DNA from: Octopus vulgaris | Taxonomy: Eukaryota | NCBI GenBank assembly: GCA_951406725.2 | Contig: OX597828.1 | Span: forward strand, 75,144,001 to 75,208,000 | Length of the DNA: 64,000 bases | Direction of reading: 5' to 3' | In this document: positions 6,267 to 40,148 of the stretch, piece by piece | Layout of the letters: every line of letters begins with the position of its first letter | Position numbering within the stretch: the first letter of the stretch is position 1 | Position numbers and translations under genes: made by a program | The notes under the pieces: model-generated | What the model saw: only the letters and a program-made list of their open reading frames with translations | Database searches by the model: none | Told to the model about the DNA's origin: nothing

Positions 6267-6524
6267 ATGGTATTTTTCTATAAGCTTAAAGTTTATGGCA
6301 ATCACCTTGCAATGACTAAGGAAAATAGTCTAATAAAGGGGCACATAAGTCCCTGATAGCAAAAAGAAGGCTTTCCTATCCACATGGACACAAACCCACA
6401 TCCCTTTGCTACCTACAGGAAATCCTTTTTTCTGTCGAGGGTTTATGTGCTCCTTTATTAGACTATTTTCCTAAGTCATTGCATGGTGATCACCATAAGC
6501 TTTAAGCTTATATAAAAATACCAT
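6267..6524. repeat. Imperfect inverted repeat, arms about 110 bp
   Basis: atggtatttttctataagcttaaag... pairs with ...ctttaagcttatataaaaataccat; spacer about 6380-6415. Confidence 0.9.
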
Positions 6525-11119: not shown

Positions 11120-11700
11120 ACACACACACAAAAGGCTTCTTTCAGCTTCTGTCTTTCAAGTCCACTCATGCCTGAAGCTAGAGTGGAAGATACTTGCTCA
11201 AGGTACTGTGCTGTGGGAATGAACCCAAGACCACATGGTTGGGAAGTAAGCTCTTTAACCACACACCCAAACCTGTAAGAAAAAGAATCAAACTTGAAAA
11301 ATAAAGTGTCGGAGGATGATTTGTTCGATTAAAACCTTCAAGGCTGCCCCAGCATGGCCACAGTCAAATGACTGAAACAAGTAAAAGAATGAAAGAAAAA
11401 CTGGTAGAAATATTGCAAAGCACTTTGTCTGACTCTCTAACCATGACCCTCACCCGCTGCAAATTTTGAGAAGAGAAAGCTTATTTTGTTTATTTAATCT
11501 TTTATCTGCTTTTATAGATTTTAGCCATAGGACTGCGACCATACTGGAGCAGCCTTGAAGATTTTAATCAAACAAATTGATGCCCAACACTTTTTCATTT
11601 TTCAAGTCTGGTGCGTTTTCTTTCAGTCTCTTTTACTGAACCGCTACATTGTGGGGATGTAAACAAACCAACTCCAATTGTCAAGCAGGGAACACACACA
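11120..11700. mobile_element. SINE family B fragments (both orientations)
   Basis: Head fragment 11120-11275, 3' end in the opposite orientation 11330-11400, body fragment 11490-11700, all similar to 9935-10320. Confidence 0.7.
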
Positions 11701-15811: not shown

Positions 15812-15975
15812 GCTTTCACTTTATACACGCCAGCTCAATTTGAATCGTCCTCAGTCGAAAGACACCTGTTGTTATATTCTTGTTGTTTGTATTTGTAATT
15901 GTGTACCATGTTCTCCGTTTTTTGTCATTGTTGTGGACACATTCGCTAGCTTTCTTACAAAACAATCTAATGCTA
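15812..15975 (+). repeat. 164 bp dispersed repeat, copy 1
   Basis: Matches 18851-19014 with two substitutions. Confidence 0.9.
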
Positions 15976-16029
15976 TTACATTATCTCAGATCAAATCACA
16001 GACCAAAATTCTTCTAAAGTACCCCTCCT

Positions 16030-16438: not shown

Positions 16439-16519
16439 CTACCAAAAAGAAATGTGAAATATCATCATATTCTTGTAGATAACCCTGCCCGCCTAAAACA
16501 TTCCAGACAGCTTAATCCA

Positions 16520-16934
16520 TATGTACACTATTTACATTCGACGGATATTTGTCCTCATCTTGTTTTGTTGTTAACACATTTCAGCTGACATACTCTCCAG
16601 TCTTCTTCAGGAGTCTTGGGGAAATTTCGAACCTGGGTTCTCATTCCTAAGGTATTTTTTTGATGTTGTTATTATTATATGGGCATATAGCATATTGGCA
16701 TATGGCATAGTGGTTAAGAGCGCAGGCTACCAACCCCAAGATTCTGAGTTCGATTCCAGGCAGTGACCTGAATAATGATTAATAACAACAACATCCAAAA
16801 ATACCTTAGGAATGAGAACCTAGGTTCGAAATTTCCCCAAGACACCTGATGAAGGCTGGAAGGTATATCAGCTGAAACGTTGTGTTAGCAACAAACAAGG
16901 TGAGGACAAATATCCATCAAATGTAATGTACATA
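16520..16934 (+). mobile_element. tRNA-like head + hammerhead-bearing tail with an upstream inverted tail copy
   Basis: Inverted arms about 16520-16676 and 16780-16934; A box tggcatagtgg 16703-16713; B box gttcgattcc 16748-16757; hammerhead motif 16841-16886. Confidence 0.8.
16841..16886 (+). ncRNA. Minimal type I hammerhead ribozyme motif
   Basis: gacac-CTGATGA-A-ggctgg/tcagct-GAAA-CGTT-gtgtt; palindromic AACGTT in place of stem III; GUU cleavage triplet. Confidence 0.75.
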
Positions 16935-17377
16935 ATTCCTCATCTCTTAAATATAGAATTGTATTAGGTTAATCCTTGATATCAATATTCTGAATAAATC
17001 TCCCTTCCAAAGTACAACATATATTGAGGCCGCTACATCGTGGCCACCACATCGCTCACAGAGAAAATCACGATGGAATCAACAACAAAAATATTCCACG
17101 TTTACCATTCTAAGACACAAAGACCACAGCAGTCTTCGACTTCATTCTTTGTTATGTTCGTCCTTCAACGGAATGTATTCACTATCACATGTCAAATACA
17201 CACACACACACACACATGATTGGGGTAATTCAAATGTCCCTTTGGCACGAATATAAATCTGCTAACAATAGAGGACAATTGAGATCATTCAGTTTTTTAA
17301 TATGTCTTACGATTTTTCCCTCACACCTCCTATCTTTTCCCCCATCCTTCTCTCATAGTATATATATATATATATAT

Positions 17378-17641
17378 TTCGTTTTTGTATTTGGTTTGCA
17401 AGATTCTTTATGTGAATTCGTGTGTTGAAGCATTTTTTTAATGTGTCTAGGAAGAGTCATTCTCTTTTAGTACCTTATTACTTAACACACTCACCGGTTC
17501 GATTTCCACTCATTTGCTTATTTATTTTTACTAAAATCTTCTTTGCCCCTGCAACGAATATTTTAGTAAAAATAAATAAATGAGTGGAAATCGAACCGGT
17601 GAGTGTGTTAAGTAATAAGGTACTAAAAGAGGATGACTCTT
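17378..17641. repeat. TA-adjacent element ending in a fold-back of about 90 bp arms (17452-17641)
   Basis: aagagtcattctcttttagtaccttattacttaacacactcaccggttcgatttccactcattt pairs with aaatgagtggaaatcgaaccggtgagtgtgttaagtaataaggtactaaaagaggatgactctt; loop about 4 nt. Confidence 0.9.
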
Positions 17642-18422
17642 AACAGACACAATAATACACACACACACACACACACACACACAGATATATATTTATATAT
17701 ACATATGTATACACACACACGCACGCATATATATATAAAATGTTCACCAATTGTGATATATATATATATATATATAAATAAATCTAATGAAAAAGGAATC
17801 AACCAGAGCGTATAAACACAGACAGGTGTTATTAGATGAAGAAAGGAGGCATAAAAAGGAAACAAAACATATGACCACCACTACCGATGGCATATAAATC
17901 GTTCACCATCGCTATCGTCATTATCACCATCTTCCGCATTACCACCACCACCTGTAAAACAATCATTATCGTTTCATAGAACCCACCTCCGCCGCCGCCG
18001 CATTGCCACTACTGCTGCCCCCACCCCCCCGCCGCTGCTATCCCCTACAACCCCCACCACAGGCGCAACACTGCGGCCGCCACCACCTCTTTACTTTTCT
18101 CTTCCTTTCCCCCCTGCACCACCGTCACCACCACCATCGACTTAGGTATCATAACACCACAGCAAACAACCAATAATGAAATAAAAACGAACGAACATAT
18201 AAAAAATAGAAATGATTATTGATATTGTAGGAAGCACACACACACACACACACAAAAAGAAAACAGCACAGACAGCAATAACAACAAGAACAACATGCAA
18301 GTCTGAGACAAACTGTAATCACAGAGAATACAGCCTACAACTAACATGGCATCATGGAGTGAATTGAAATCAATAAAGGAAAACAAACGTTCACGCACAA
18401 CATATAGAAGGACACGAATCGC

Positions 18423-18623: not shown

Positions 18624-19225
18624 TTCTTTATTTGTGAATTAAGGATACCGTTGGTTCCATGTTAAGAAAAGTAGGAAAATAGCTGTCTTAACAATTTTCC
18701 AAGCCAATCACATGGAGAAAGGTGTTCACCTATTTCACAAATAAAGAAGTTGCATATCCACCAATGCGGTGTTGAGCACTCATTTCTTTCTTGCCTTGAC
18801 TACCGACCGCCAACACCTCTTATGTCCATCTCCTATTTTCCTGCCTTTAGGCTTTCACTTTATACACGCCAGCTCAATTTGAATCGTCCTCAGTCGAAAG
18901 ACACCTGTTGTTATATTCTTGTTGTTTGTATTTGTAATTGTGTACCATGTTCTCCGTTTTTTGTCTTTGTTGTGGACACATTCGCTAGCTTTCTTACGAA
19001 ACAATCTAATGCTACTAGCTTAGACATTTTTGAGGGCAACCAAATCGAAGTCTCAAGTGTAACTGCCCGAAACTGTAAGGACATCCGGAAACCTGACTGA
19101 CGAAAGAAGGCCACGAACGACCCGTCCTTTCTGTTTTCTGTCCCTCTAATTGTTTTTCCTGTCCGCCATCGTATTGTCTATCTGTCCCGTTGTTTTCTTG
19201 TCTTCTGTTGCTTTTTTGTTGCATT
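18624..19225 (+). mobile_element. Composite of repeat fragments between microsatellites (short IR, 164 bp repeat copy 2, truncated hammerhead)
   Basis: IR 18624-18638/18734-18748; 18851-19014 duplicates 15812-15975; gggca/tgccc-GAAA-CTGTA at 19034-19077. Confidence 0.55.
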
Positions 19226-23342: not shown

Positions 23343-23703
23343 AAGGCGGCGAGCTGGCAGAATGGTTAGCACGTTCGGAGTTCAAATTCAGCCGAGGTCG
23401 ACTTTGCCTTTCATCCTTTCGGGGTCGATAAATAAAGTACGAGTTACGCACTGGGGTCGATATAATCAACTTAATCCGTTTGACTGTCCTTGTTTGTCCT
23501 CTCTGTGTTTAGCCCCTTGTGGGTAGTAAAGAAATAGGTATTTCGTCTGTCGCTACGTTCTGAGTTCAAATTCCACCGAGGTCGACATTGCCGGTCATCC
23601 TTTCGCGGTCGATAAAATAAGTACCAGTTACGCACTGGCGTTGATCTAATCGACTAGCCCCCTCTTCTAAAATTTCGAGCATTGTGCCTAGAGTAGAAAA
23701 AGA
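23343..23703 (+). mobile_element. SINE family A dimer
   Basis: aaggcggcgagctggcagaa head; two gagttcaaatt...gaggtcgac cores joined by the tgtccttgtttgtc...gaaataggt linker. Confidence 0.9.
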
Positions 23704-23850
23704 ATATTAAGACTAAGATGTCAAGACTTTAAGGTTAAGATTGTGTTGATAAGATTTTTTAATGTAAAGATCTTACTGTCAAGACTGTTGATCTTAAGAC
23801 TGTTATAATGTAATGTTAAATCGTAAAGTTAATTTCAAGACTGTAATATT

Positions 23851-24062
23851 CTTTTCTATTCTAGGTACAAGGCCCGAAATTTTTGGGGAGGGGGCCAGTC
23901 GATTAGATTGACCCAGTACGCAACTAGTACTTAATTTATCGACCTCGAAAGGATAAAAGGCAAAGTCGATCTCGGCGGAATTTGAACTCAGAGCGTAAAG
24001 ACAGACGAAGTACCGCTAAGTATTTCGCCCGGCGGGTCAACGTTTCTGCCTGCTCGCTGCCT
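23851..24062 (-). mobile_element. SINE family A monomer with TSD
   Basis: Full-length copy; gactgtaatatt is present on both flanks. Confidence 0.9.
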
Positions 24063-27169: not shown

Positions 27170-27387
27170 GGTTTCAAATTTTGGCACAGGGACAGCAGTT
27201 TTTGAGGTGGTGGGGAGGAAGTCAATTACATTGACCCCAGGGCTCAACAGTTACTGATTTTACAGACTCCAAAAGGATGAAAGGCAAAGTGGACCTTGAC
27301 GAAATTTGAAATCAGAACGTAAAGACCGAAGGAATACCATTAAGTATTTTGTCCGGTGTGCTAACGATTCTACTAGCTCACTGGCTC
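27170..27387 (-). mobile_element. SINE family A monomer
   Basis: aaggatgaaaggcaaagt core; AAT repeats on both sides. Confidence 0.8.
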
Positions 27388-27433
27388 AATAATAATAATA
27401 ACAACAACAACAACAACAACAATAATAATAATA

Positions 27434-28767
27434 AAAAGAGAGCTCAATGCTAAAAACAAGATAATAGGTATTAACACTTTAGCCGTCCCAGTTATAAGTT
27501 ACAGCTACAATACCCTTAACTGGACGCTAAATGAACTAACCAAAATAGATAGGAAAACAAGAAAAATAATGACAGGATCTAGGATGCATCACCCAAAATC
27601 TGACATAGAAAGGCTATATATACAACGTATAGAAGGTGGTAGAGGCCTTATAAAACTGGAAAACTACTATAAAATAACCACCACAGGACTGCAAAAACAC
27701 CTCCTTCAGAAGCAAGGAAAACTGATACAAATAGCGGCAAAACACGAGCAAAACAAAAAACTGTTCTCAGTATTTAAGGAAGCTGAAAAATGCAAACAAG
27801 AAATCATACCACCTAACAAATATGAAGAAAAAGAAGAAGATGAAGAAACAACAAAAGCTATAAAGCAAATGAAATCAAAACTAAAACTAGAACAGCAACG
27901 GACCATGATAAAACGATGGCAAGAAAAGCCCCTTCATGGCAAGTACTGGACTAAATTAAATGCAAAAGAAACAGACAAAGAAAAATCCCAGCAATGGTTG
28001 AGAAGCTCAGGACTCAAAGCAGAAACAGGGATTTTTAATTGCAGCACAAGACCAAAACCTCTCCACCAGAAATTACCAAAAACATGTAATGAAAAGAAAT
28101 ATAACAAGTAACTGCAGAATATGTGGAGATGGACAAGAAACAATAAATCATATTATCTCTGGCTGCCCAGTCCTGGCTAAGAAGGAAAATATTCACAGAC
28201 ACGACAGAGTTGGGACCTACATACACTGGAAGCTATGCCAACATCATGGAATAACAACAGTAAAAAAGATGGTATAGGCACACACCAGAAAAGGTCACAG
28301 AAAACGAGAAAGCAACCATACTCTGGGATATGCCGATACACACAGATAGAGACATTAAAGCCAACAGACCAGATGTAGTTGTCAGAGATCATGAAAAAAA
28401 AATGCTTTCTAATTGATGTATCAATACCGGCAGATGACAACGTGTCTCTAAAAGAAATAGAGAAACTTTCAAAATACAAAGACTTGGAAATAGAGGTAAC
28501 TAGAATGTGGAATCTAAACACAGAAACTATTCTTATCATAGTAGCATGATAAAAAATATTCAGACAAATACATAACAAAAACACCAGGACTTACAAACAC
28601 ATATAACATACAGAAAATTGCACTACTAGGCACTGCACACATCCTACGCAGAACACTTTCAATACAGTAACCATCAGAGCATCACAACAAATCACAGCAC
28701 ATACCCAAGGCACACAGAGCTGCGCTCGGTAGTGAAGTGAAAGCACGCTATAAAAATAAAACTACTG
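27434..28767 (+). mobile_element. 5'-truncated R4/Dong-type non-LTR retrotransposon (post-RT region, CCHC finger, restriction-like endonuclease), frameshifted
   Basis: ELNAKNKIIGINTLAVPV...HHPKSDIERLY...GGRGL; CRIC...ETINHIISGC...RHDRV; NRPDVV...IDVSIP...KYKDL; stop at 28668-28670; about 100 bp 3' UTR; (AAT)n on both flanks. Confidence 0.92.
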
Positions 28768-33690: not shown

Positions 33691-34412
33691 TGTAGTATGT
33701 GTGTATACTCATTCATACACCACTCATGGTGTTACGTGTCTCTGACAGTGTTGTATCTTGCTCCATCTAATTTCACTCTCCCCTCATCTTTTCTGCTGCT
33801 GCTACTCCTCCTCCTCCTCCTCCTCACTACCACCACCACCACAGTATTATCATCATCATCACCATCAGCATCATCCACATCATCTTTACAATTACCATCA
33901 TCATCGCCATCATCAACATCAATGCCATTTTAGGAAATGGTTAATGGCTTCTTGTTGTTTACAATTGCTGAGAAGATTTGACTGTAGAATCGGTAAAGAA
34001 GGCAAAGAAAATAGTTTGCAGAATTTCTTTGAGTCATTCATTTAAAGTTCTGAAGTGGAATCTCTGTGGGTTGGACTTAGTCATTGATATAATTTTGTGT
34101 TCGATTACACATTTGAGACCAAATATTATCGATTATACCCCACTCTTTTACCTGCAAACATTTGGAACCACCATTAGCTTCACCAACGTCGAGGCGACTA
34201 AATACAGCAAAGAGATAATATGTTAGTCAGGGCTTCGAATCCTAGCAGGGTTCATTATATTGTCCTTTTACACACACATGTATAACAAGTTACATAACGA
34301 ACACACACACACATATATAAAGAAATAATTAAGATTCAGTTGAATTAGATACTTAAGTTGAAGCACCAAGTCAGAACGGTATTATCCGCTCAGCTCGAAG
34401 TAAGGTGAATAA

Positions 34413-34519
34413 AATCAAAATAAGCCACAGGATATCAAGTAGTGATACAGTACGATCGTTTCAACCCTTGAAATGGTCGTACGGCATCACTATTTGATAT
34501 CCTGTTGGTTATTTTGATT
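34413..34519. repeat. Fold-back with arms of about 52 bp and a 3 nt loop
   Basis: aatcaaaataagccacaggatatcaagtagtgatacagtacgatcgtttcaa-ccc-ttgaaatggtcgtacggcatcactatttgatatcctgttggttattttgatt. Confidence 0.9.
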
Positions 34520-34690
34520 ATATATATATAAAATTAATAATATGAGGGTAAAATTAATTGATCAAATTAATTAATCAATCAATTAATTAATAATTTTACC
34601 AAGTAGATCGATACTTTACAATAACCTTTATAGGTAAAATTGTACAAATATTCTATAATTATAAACAAAATTATAATTAGCTATTATATC

Positions 34691-34729
<39 letters not shown>

Positions 34730-34766
34730 AAAAAAGGAGATGTCGAACAAGAGTGGTGATATATAA

Positions 34767-34957
34767 AAAAGGAAATGAAGAAAATGCTGACAAATAATTG
34801 AAGTAATTTAAGTAATTTAATTAGGTGAAAGTTCTTTTTACCGGTTGCGCATTTGTTATGCTTATAAGCATAACAAATGCGCAACCGGTAAAAAGAACTT
34901 TCACCTAATTAAATTACTTAAATTACTTCAATTATTTGTCAGCATTTTCTTCATTTC

Positions 34958-34962
<5 letters not shown>
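34767..34962. repeat. Perfect 196 bp palindrome (98 bp arms, no spacer)
   Basis: Centre ctta|taag at 34864/34865; the ORF track gives identical N-terminal peptides on both strands. Confidence 0.95.
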
Positions 34963-35005
<43 letters not shown>

Positions 35006-38742: not shown

Positions 38743-40148
38743 TGAATGGTCTACATGTATCCAGCGCGTTGTTCATTTATGTTTTTATTTTGTATACGTT
38801 CCATTGAATGCAGAATGTATAAACATATTCATCCAGTACATAGCTTCTATCATTCATATATCCCAAGCCAGAGTACGGCTTACCCCCCCCCCACCACATG
38901 CATAGATATATATCTGTAGACTTTCCCTTGCATGTGCACACGTTTCTAGGAACTCAAAGAACATATAGACAGCAATAAGAACATATAGACATCTGACAAA
39001 TACACCTGCAAACAGAGAAATGTTTCCAGAAAAAAAAATGATAATTCCATCCACCCAAAACAAGATCCCACTACAGCCAGGTGACATGCACACTACAGAC
39101 ACAAATAACTGATGGTTATTTATTATGCTTAAATTTTTATTTATGTTTGTTTATTTAAAAACGCAACACAACAGAAAACATTTGGCTATAGAAACACGAG
39201 TCATTGAAAACAGATATCTCGACAATATATCTTAAATTTCATAGCTAACATCACTCATGAACAATCTTAAACTCACTCCACCCGCTAACACACATTTTTA
39301 TTTATGTTCTTTGACCACTGGCAAAATAAATACCCAGCACTAATTTAGATAATAGCTTGGCAACGCCAGATGGCCATAATCTGCCAAGCGTTCTTACACA
39401 GATAATTATTTCCTCCAAGAAATGTAACACCACCCCACAACCAAATTCTAAAGAAATACAAACTGCCGAACAAGTACACACTTTTTCCAAAAACAAGAGA
39501 AACAAAATTCTATAAAAAAAGCAGCTGCTTTTTACTCACAAAGCAATCGCCCGAAATCACTCAGCCATGCTAAGTGCTGTTCAATAGGGATATAGCTTAT
39601 AGATGTCCTTACGTTTTCCAATAATTTATTCTTGATAAACTTTCTTTCTTACGTACGCCCACAAGAGAGAAAACCTCATCACCAACTCACCAACAAACCC
39701 TAAACAAACTGATAGCACGTCATTCTTCCGACAATAGCCAGAAATACAAACACTACATTACAACAATAACAAACAACGAATGGAGAGACCATAAAAAAAA
39801 CATCACCCAATCAATAGACACGGGAAGGTAAGCAAGTAAACAAACGCATGCGTTAGATCAAAGGATATAAGTAAACTGGGAATATCGAGTTGTAACAGTT
39901 TTCGCCTGAAGAGATTACAGTGATGTGAAACACGATTTGCAAGACAAAACCCTTAGTTTCGGTTTCATTAAAAGTCCACATTCTCTACAACATCTATTGA
40001 GCGTTCACCTTTCAATTGTTCGATAAAAACCAACGTACACACATACACAAATATATAGAAAGAGGGGGGGATAAAGGAAAGAAAAACTAAATAAATGAGA
40101 AGTATATGATTATATGTTTTCCCTTCTCGGGATCTTTCCTTCTCCTGT

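Follow-up and report, generated by a model that had tools for sequence, protein, structure and literature searches.

Head-to-head pseudo-LTRs of a Penelope-like retrotransposon with a tRNA-like 5' end in Octopus vulgaris

Results

The window insertion and its parts

We analysed a 64,000-nucleotide stretch of Octopus vulgaris contig OX597828.1, hereafter the window, which carries a repeat with a tRNA-like head and a hammerhead ribozyme motif. The insertion is almost certainly a head-to-head pair of pseudo-LTRs (pLTRs) of a protein-coding Penelope/Poseidon retrotransposon. The pair was probably copied by the element's own reverse transcriptase (RT) from the 5' end of the element RNA, and the solo copies of such pLTRs are likely dead-end by-products of the full element, not a self-propagating SINE.

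The sequence-only reading of this locus had described a tRNA-like head with A and B boxes, an AAT/AAC linker and a minimal type I hammerhead, all of which are present where it had placed them (Table 1). The inverted copy of the tail directly upstream, with a hammerhead that has lost 3 nt after GAAA, was confirmed, as was the lack of a T4 run between head and ribozyme, which is true for the + strand. The element had been ended at 16934; the family match runs on to about 16965, up to the edge of the target-site duplication that flanks the whole insertion, and the shorter version would drop the diagnostic tail of ~34 nt. The + strand hammerhead has an extra A between positions 9 and 10.1 and a palindromic stem III of 4 nt, and a U replaces C11.1 so that a G-U pair stands in place of G10.1-C11.1. 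The copy of the ORF frame in the window has an in-frame stop at codon 4. At this locus, neither the tRNA nor the hammerhead is matched by Rfam (gathering and E-value thresholds) or ARAGORN; the Rfam hammerhead models suggested earlier thus gave nothing here. The predicted fold of the monomer is not better than those of shuffled sequences (z -0.7 and -1.2).

Table 1 Features of the pLTR insertion in the window.
Feature	Position	Strand	Remarks
Target-site duplication, left copy	16509..16520	+	12 bp, 2 mismatches relative to the right copy; mostly 12-13 bp in the family
Inverted pLTR arm, 5'-truncated, without tail	16521..16677	-	spans the AAT linker through the first end site
Broken hammerhead in the inverted arm	16573..16615	-	3 nt missing after GAAA
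Putative abortive extra head start at the arm-arm junction	16681..16694	+	read from the sequence
tRNA-like head, 5' part of the Penelope pLTR	16697..16768	+	boxes retained, stems decayed
A box	16703..16713	+
B box	16748..16757	+	tRNA spacing from the A box
AAT/AAC linker	16771..16792	+	length differs between copies
First ~50 codons of the PLE ORF frame	16812..16965	+	first ATG 16812; inferred start
Minimal type I hammerhead	16841..16886	+	core 16846, GAAA 16874, predicted cut 16881/16882
Predicted stem-loop, A/C/U-rich loop with the first end site (~16930)	16898..16945	+	z -1.6, weak
Penelope tail, ~34 nt, between both end sites	16931..16965	+	on the + arm only
Target-site duplication, right copy	16966..16977	+	direct repeat of 16509..16520

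Elsewhere in the window, two direct copies of another dispersed repeat, 167 bp long and 98% identical, lie at 15812-15978 and 18851-19017. They bracket a 3-kb stretch with the pLTR insertion, the left copy being a cut piece of the longer right one; this repeat has 2,219 candidates in the genome, its other copies are 89-93% identical, and no RT match lies nearby. Further fold-back repeats are found at 34759-34970, 17438-17655, 6267-6524, 23537-24014, 34409-34523 and 11273-11626, one of them of 212 bp at 99% identity. A loose pattern picks out hammerhead-core-like motifs at 39906 (+) and 41082 (-). A 244-codon open frame at 27377-28111 (+) presumably corresponds to the C-terminal part of a LINE reverse-transcriptase ORF, which it resembles.

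The pLTR belongs to an autonomous Penelope-like element

The route to the autonomous partner led through L005, L010, L021 and L072, four loci with common sequence upstream of the head; this sequence encodes the C-terminal domain of a Penelope-type ORF. Among the 30 best loci carrying the GIY-YIG end of this ORF, 26 run into the head after a spacer of ~40 nt (counted from the printed sequences), while the remaining 4 break at or before it. On the other side, the tail continues in frame into the ORF N-terminus at L148, L174, L179, L182 and L186, L174 being a partial tandem. The pLTR thus stands at both ends of the element, where it overlaps the ORF start, and partial tandems are present; one unit measures ~2.6 kb. 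The RT domain is recognized by PF00078 (E 1.4e-10), and the C-terminal domain aligns with relatives bearing the domain set of Penelope-like elements (PLEs), giving an RT followed by a GIY-YIG-type endonuclease in one ORF; the Pfam GIY-YIG profile did not score on the piece from L010. No fully open ORF occurs among the copies examined, the longest open stretch being 569 aa.

Among named relatives, RT/PF26215 proteins from Anolis, lamprey, sea urchins and beetles are the closest. In a quick tree, whose reference elements do not come from every clade, the element groups with the Anolis, lamprey and urchin proteins, apart from the two other PLE families of the genome. Its N-terminus, which overlaps the hammerhead, aligns with the N-terminus of the relative P0009 (39% over 198 aa), and a query with a distant relative fetched 30 loci that all belong to the family of the window element. 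The expectation of mobilisation by a Penelope-type rather than a LINE enzyme, with a partner (RT and GIY-YIG) sharing the tail, was borne out. The idea of a separate SINE with its own head was not: the head is that of the autonomous pLTR at 26 of 30 ORF ends.

A partner search through the Pfam GIY-YIG profile returned other PLE families, with frames of 781 aa, and the tail had no match in those 30 loci. One of these is a second, younger PLE family (L037, L042, L053 and others) with many open frames of this length and tandem repeats in its 3' region; by the pattern used, it has no hammerhead core. The search for DNA of related PLEs in other organisms gave one uninformative metagenome locus, none in viral contigs and one distant locus, L294. 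The latter (L294:3001-4125) holds a fragment of a Penelope-like RT; its contig bears the title of a bacterial metagenome-assembled genome, but the fragment is likely host DNA.

Family size and divergence

The 25-mer at 16835-16859 has 5,017 exact matches in the 2.8-Gb genome and a 20-mer from the head has 5,148, against 0 for the reversed-pattern controls of both. Since only 11-44% of the sampled arms hold the exact 25-mer, we estimate the total at roughly ten to fifty thousand arms. Head and tail are joined well beyond this locus, in 40 of 40 scored copies (5,421 candidates in the genome). When loci are picked by the head, the tail lies downstream in 24 of 30, in one case only via a neighbouring copy. 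In the remaining 6 the match stops within the linker or ahead of it, and no other shared tail follows; chance nesting of a SINE beside a PLE end was rejected on this sample.

Divergence from the majority sequence is ~5% for the tail and ~10% for the head, which is rich in CpG. The family is star-like: at least three shared derived non-CpG changes were found in 3 of 8,132 between-insertion pairs, one of them a likely segmental duplicate. Derived variants are shared four times more often within the arms of one insertion than between insertions (0.61 versus 0.15 per 100 nt).

Four copies of the spacer-head junction, spaced at 150-300 bp, form a small tandem array of part of the element at G000:C2:16238319-16238941. 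One arm is interrupted at L091:1090-1190 by a piece that we take to be 5S-rRNA-like, with a LINE fragment behind it.

Arms, end sites and target duplications

Following genome order, we sampled insertions within the first 51 Mb of a single contig (n = 86, that is 90 loci less 4 second arms, drawn from 100 listed exact 25-mer matches with the last few omitted), and arm boundaries were taken from merged BLAST hits. Pairs make up 52 of the 86 insertions and 51 of these 52 are head-to-head, so that the upstream inversion noted in the window is a recurrent feature (51/86); two other common repeats from these loci, used as controls, are paired in this way in 2 of 100 and 1 of 87 copies. Head-to-tail repeats are single cases (L021, L092 and L215), which does not favour the circle or dimer once suggested as template.

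The 3' ends of arms fall at two fixed sites inside the ORF frame, with no SINE-type simple-repeat or A-rich end. With positions counted from the first base of the head, 76 of the 142 arms have their end close to +235 and 61 close to +268; 2 end close to the cut site of the ribozyme. The ~185-nt RNA ended by self-cleavage that the sequence-only reading had expected is not the template, because copies do not end at the cut. RNA reads of three runs have, independently, loose ends at +234/235 and +268/269, and these delimit a tail of 34 nt. Tailed and tail-less arms are combined in 44 of 48 pairs, where 50% would be expected (p 7e-10; 3 pairs with eroded ends excluded), a pattern typical of Penelope.

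At the 5' side, 56 of the 86 insertions reach the head start; 43 stop within -16 to +17 and 13 continue, 6 of them beyond -550. A palindrome lies just before the head, where 364 exact fold-backs compare with 375 exact read-throughs into the spacer, and 10 unpaired copies start at the head start. Of 43 pairs, 15 have a tail-less arm that extends beyond the 5' end of the tailed arm by at least 30 nt, and the reverse holds in 14 (L106, a full-element 5' end, excluded). Target-site duplications flank 16 of the 24 pairs that could be scored, versus 3.7% of shuffled partners, and 11 of the 16 are 12-13 bp long; 20 more pairs, whose end motif was unmatched, were skipped in this scoring.

The hammerhead across the family

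The family core of a minimal hammerhead with palindromic stem III, as proposed from the window, is kept: 48 of 138 arms have the core with the G-C closing pair, and 30 of 138 are fully canonical. Judged by motif, the pLTR hammerhead of the family fits the minimal type, with an extra nucleotide between 9 and 10.1, the pair G10.1-C11.1 and palindromic 15.2-16.2, features described for minimal PLE hammerheads (PMC4209133). A modelled dimer did not adopt the hammerhead fold in RNAfold. In RNA-seq of three runs, uncut reads span the cut site, in a run type that is blind to ends and strand and against a reference lacking 3 nt there; no RNA joint at the cut occurs among the joints listed from this fragmented RNA. 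A genome search with RF00163 gave 6 matches, all in other families. Among these other loci, L112, L113 and L116 are Rfam Hammerhead_1 matches with a long stem II insert, apparently of one family, and L114 and L115 are short.

The tRNA-like head and T4 runs

Compared with 30 sampled genomic tRNAs of 6 isotypes, the head is nearest to tRNA-Arg (z 7.1; other isotypes 3-6.6), which is not decisive. Changes among copies amount to 5.2% in the A box, 3.1% in the B box and 5.9% in the rest; the boxes are not clearly better kept, as neutral decay predicts. The A and B boxes are likely the promoter (Pol III) of the element, and the Pol III promoter first proposed for the head remains plausible. The cluster of 5' ends would agree with an RNA that begins at about -6 to +3, as from a Pol III start, and the palindrome could contribute to it. 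Indeed, 5' palindromes also occur in pLTRs without tRNA heads, so a stop there need not mark a start site (PMC3846280).

We also compared runs of four identical bases over 2.4 kb of 88 copies. No T4 is common to more than 12% of them, where 6.4 are expected from the protein and the codon-position composition (P0 0.0012), while 29 A4 and 6 C4 sites are shared. Pol III read-through of a whole element requires that its sense strand be free of T4. The two other PLE families of the genome, of equal T content, have 6 and 8 T4 in 1.8 kb. G4 runs are likewise scarce (P0 0.037; one site in 31% of copies). When codons were shuffled under the element's own usage, the T4 deficit was not significant (0 versus 1.5, P 0.17), nor was it for a single copy with three private T4 runs (P 0.12-0.15), and the distant relative L294 has zero T4 in 1,125 coding nt (~2 expected). 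T4 scarcity is therefore suggestive of Pol III transcription without settling it. RNA-seq gives no sign of an own transcript, because both mate directions are about equal in the three runs and starts or ends do not pile up; the label of these runs names a species possibly other than that of the window.

Discussion

A model for the origin of the pairs

The arms of the 15 non-nested pairs (of 43) cannot be mutual copies, and each was likely primed separately; even so, they have master-type variants in common. In the mechanism that we consider probable, the element RNA would start at the tRNA-like head, and the enzyme would nick both target strands ~12 nt apart. From each nick, a cDNA would be primed on the uncleaved RNA at either of two internal start sites and, extending at most to the RNA 5' end, the two cDNAs would be joined head to head, often via the palindrome just before the head. 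Solo copies would then have been reverse-transcribed from the RNA of the autonomous element, over its first 235 or 268 nt. The PAc enzyme of the anole nicks both strands, uses two internal RT start sites and is a predicted dimer (PMC11167929), which by analogy fits separate priming in the octopus. The same study does not demonstrate joining of the two cDNAs, which counts against the mechanism (PMC11167929).

An inverted arm might instead arise by fold-back, in which one cDNA or an antisense template primes itself, a proposal made for the elements of Adineta (PMC3846280). The 364 exact fold-back junctions at the palindrome and the equal 5' reach of both arms in 11 of 44 pairs agree with such an origin, which we nevertheless find unlikely: the copy of a strand must be contained in that strand, and in 15 of 43 pairs each arm holds at least 30 nt absent from the other. 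Priming at both nicks, as opposed to a simple fold-back, is favoured by the non-nested arms, by the use of one end site per arm and by duplications of 12-13 bp. Far less probable still is a ~185-nt Pol III RNA, ended by hammerhead cleavage and perhaps circular or dimeric, as the template. The family does keep a proper minimal hammerhead (48 of 138 arms, 30 fully canonical) and circular retrozymes exist (PMC7229834), but 2 of 142 arms end near the cut and the pairs are head-to-head in 51 of 52 cases, not tandem. Moreover, retrotransposition of the anole element is independent of hammerhead cleavage (PMC11167929), minimal PLE hammerheads cleave poorly, dimers included (PMC4209133), and the RNAfold dimer lacked the hammerhead fold. 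The ribozyme does not set the template end. That solo pLTRs form a true PLE-mobilised SINE, transcribed by Pol III from their own A and B boxes and serving as templates for new copies, is about as improbable as the fold-back. Solo pLTRs outnumber ORF-linked copies (13 of 86 insertions, and 1 of 30 head-picked loci, go past the head) and have intact boxes, no T4 and both end sites on tailed arms; non-autonomous PLE derivatives are also known (PMC8557442; preprint 10.64898/2026.07.22.740005). Against this, the family is star-like, and the variants of solo pLTRs recur in ORF-linked ones with similar frequency (36/74 versus 13/34; 17/118 versus 9/42), with no solo-specific variants or sub-lineages seen. 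The exact-25-mer picking of the solo sample favours young copies and weakens the comparison of divergence (exact 25-mer in 3/28 and 5/29 ORF-picked arms versus 17/39 head-picked ones). The anole enzyme requires RNA as far as ORF nt 172, past the sites where it starts (PMC11167929); under the same requirement in the octopus, that stretch would be missing from solo copies.

As to the promoter, Pol III RNA is uncapped and hard to translate, a point for the passenger view, in which the 5' UTR once captured a SINE head, the element uses an ordinary internal Pol II promoter, and the 5' ends cluster through RT stopping or arm joining at the palindrome. Such a promoter, LINE-like and internal to the pLTR, is known from Drosophila Penelope (PMC2377424), palindromes at pLTR 5' ends are known as well (PMC3846280), and the scarcity of G4 and the T4-free L294 fragment also agree with a passenger head. 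This view stands against the absence of a shared T4 despite 29 A4 and 6 C4, the T4 runs of the two other PLE families, and the unpaired copies that also start at the head. We hold it to be a real but not a favoured possibility; it alters the promoter only and leaves the pLTR identity unaffected. Transcription of the whole coding element by Pol III is no better than a tentative proposal, with about the same standing. In its full form, which we advance just as tentatively, Pol III would make the full 2.6-2.9-kb template RNA from a captured tRNA promoter, the ORF would have been purged of T4, internal priming would remove the need for a defined 3' end, and priming at the first pLTR would shed tens of thousands of SINE-like solo pairs. 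What is new here is the combination of 5' ends piling up at the tRNA-like head (43/56) with the lack of a shared T4, which hints at Pol III.

Relation to known elements

The heads of the octopus SINEs OR1 and OR2 derive from tRNA-Arg, and schistosome SM-alpha has a tRNA-like promoter. The octopus element resembles OR1/OR2 in its tRNA-derived head and is set apart from these CORE-SINEs, by description, in that everything behind its head is PLE sequence. Like non-LTR retrozymes and SM-alpha, it includes short type I hammerhead repeats tied to PLE pLTRs (10.64898/2026.07.22.740005; PMC7229834); retrozymes, as described there, form head-to-tail arrays that canonical hammerheads cut into circles, whereas the octopus pairs are head-to-head and their ends ignore the cut.

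Its architecture agrees with that described for the Penelope/Poseidon PLEs PAc of Anolis carolinensis (PMC11167929), Pen2/Pen3 of Adineta (PMC3846280) and Penelope of Drosophila virilis (PMC2377424): an ORF with RT and C-terminal GIY-YIG, a pLTR with the ORF start and a hammerhead, an inverted 5'-truncated arm, a one-arm tail of 30-40 nt, a target-site duplication, a palindrome at the pLTR 5' end and partial tandems. In the anole element, the hammerhead and the RT start sites lie within the ORF start (PMC11167929). As far as these descriptions go, the octopus element differs in the tRNA-like 5' part of its pLTR with intact A and B boxes, in having no shared T4, and in that most copies are solo pLTR pairs; the motifs described for the known PLEs are those of Pol II-type promoters (PMC11167929, PMC3846280, PMC2377424).

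A small-RNA-derived Pol III promoter inside a terminal repeat, here a candidate, is shared with TRIMp3 elements (Cassandra, Helenus, Ajax), which differ as short non-coding LTR elements from the octopus repeat with its coding ~2.6-kb unit (PMC10886601). An autonomous retrotransposon with a tRNA-like sequence is also seen in RTE-1_DAn and relatives, RTE-1_DAn being a LINE of the RTE clade (PMC5786205). The literature searched held no description of a PLE with a tRNA-derived pLTR; the family may be named in Dfam, Repbase or SINEBase.

Implications

The thousands of short insertions bear on how PLEs acquire inverted repeats with a one-sided tail, a matter left unresolved in PMC8557442 and PMC11167929. 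Automatic annotation would file such solo pLTRs as tRNA SINEs, and one octopus annotation has 893 recently active families under unclassified SINE (PMC13282606). Were the head to work as a Pol III promoter, this would contradict the expectation that autonomous retrotransposons must use Pol II, the author of the TRIMp3 work holding that autonomous partners must do so (PMC10886601). It would also raise the question of how the protein is made from an uncapped RNA or, alternatively, from a separate transcript. If the Pol III reading is true, a Penelope-to-SINE route would have been caught half-way.
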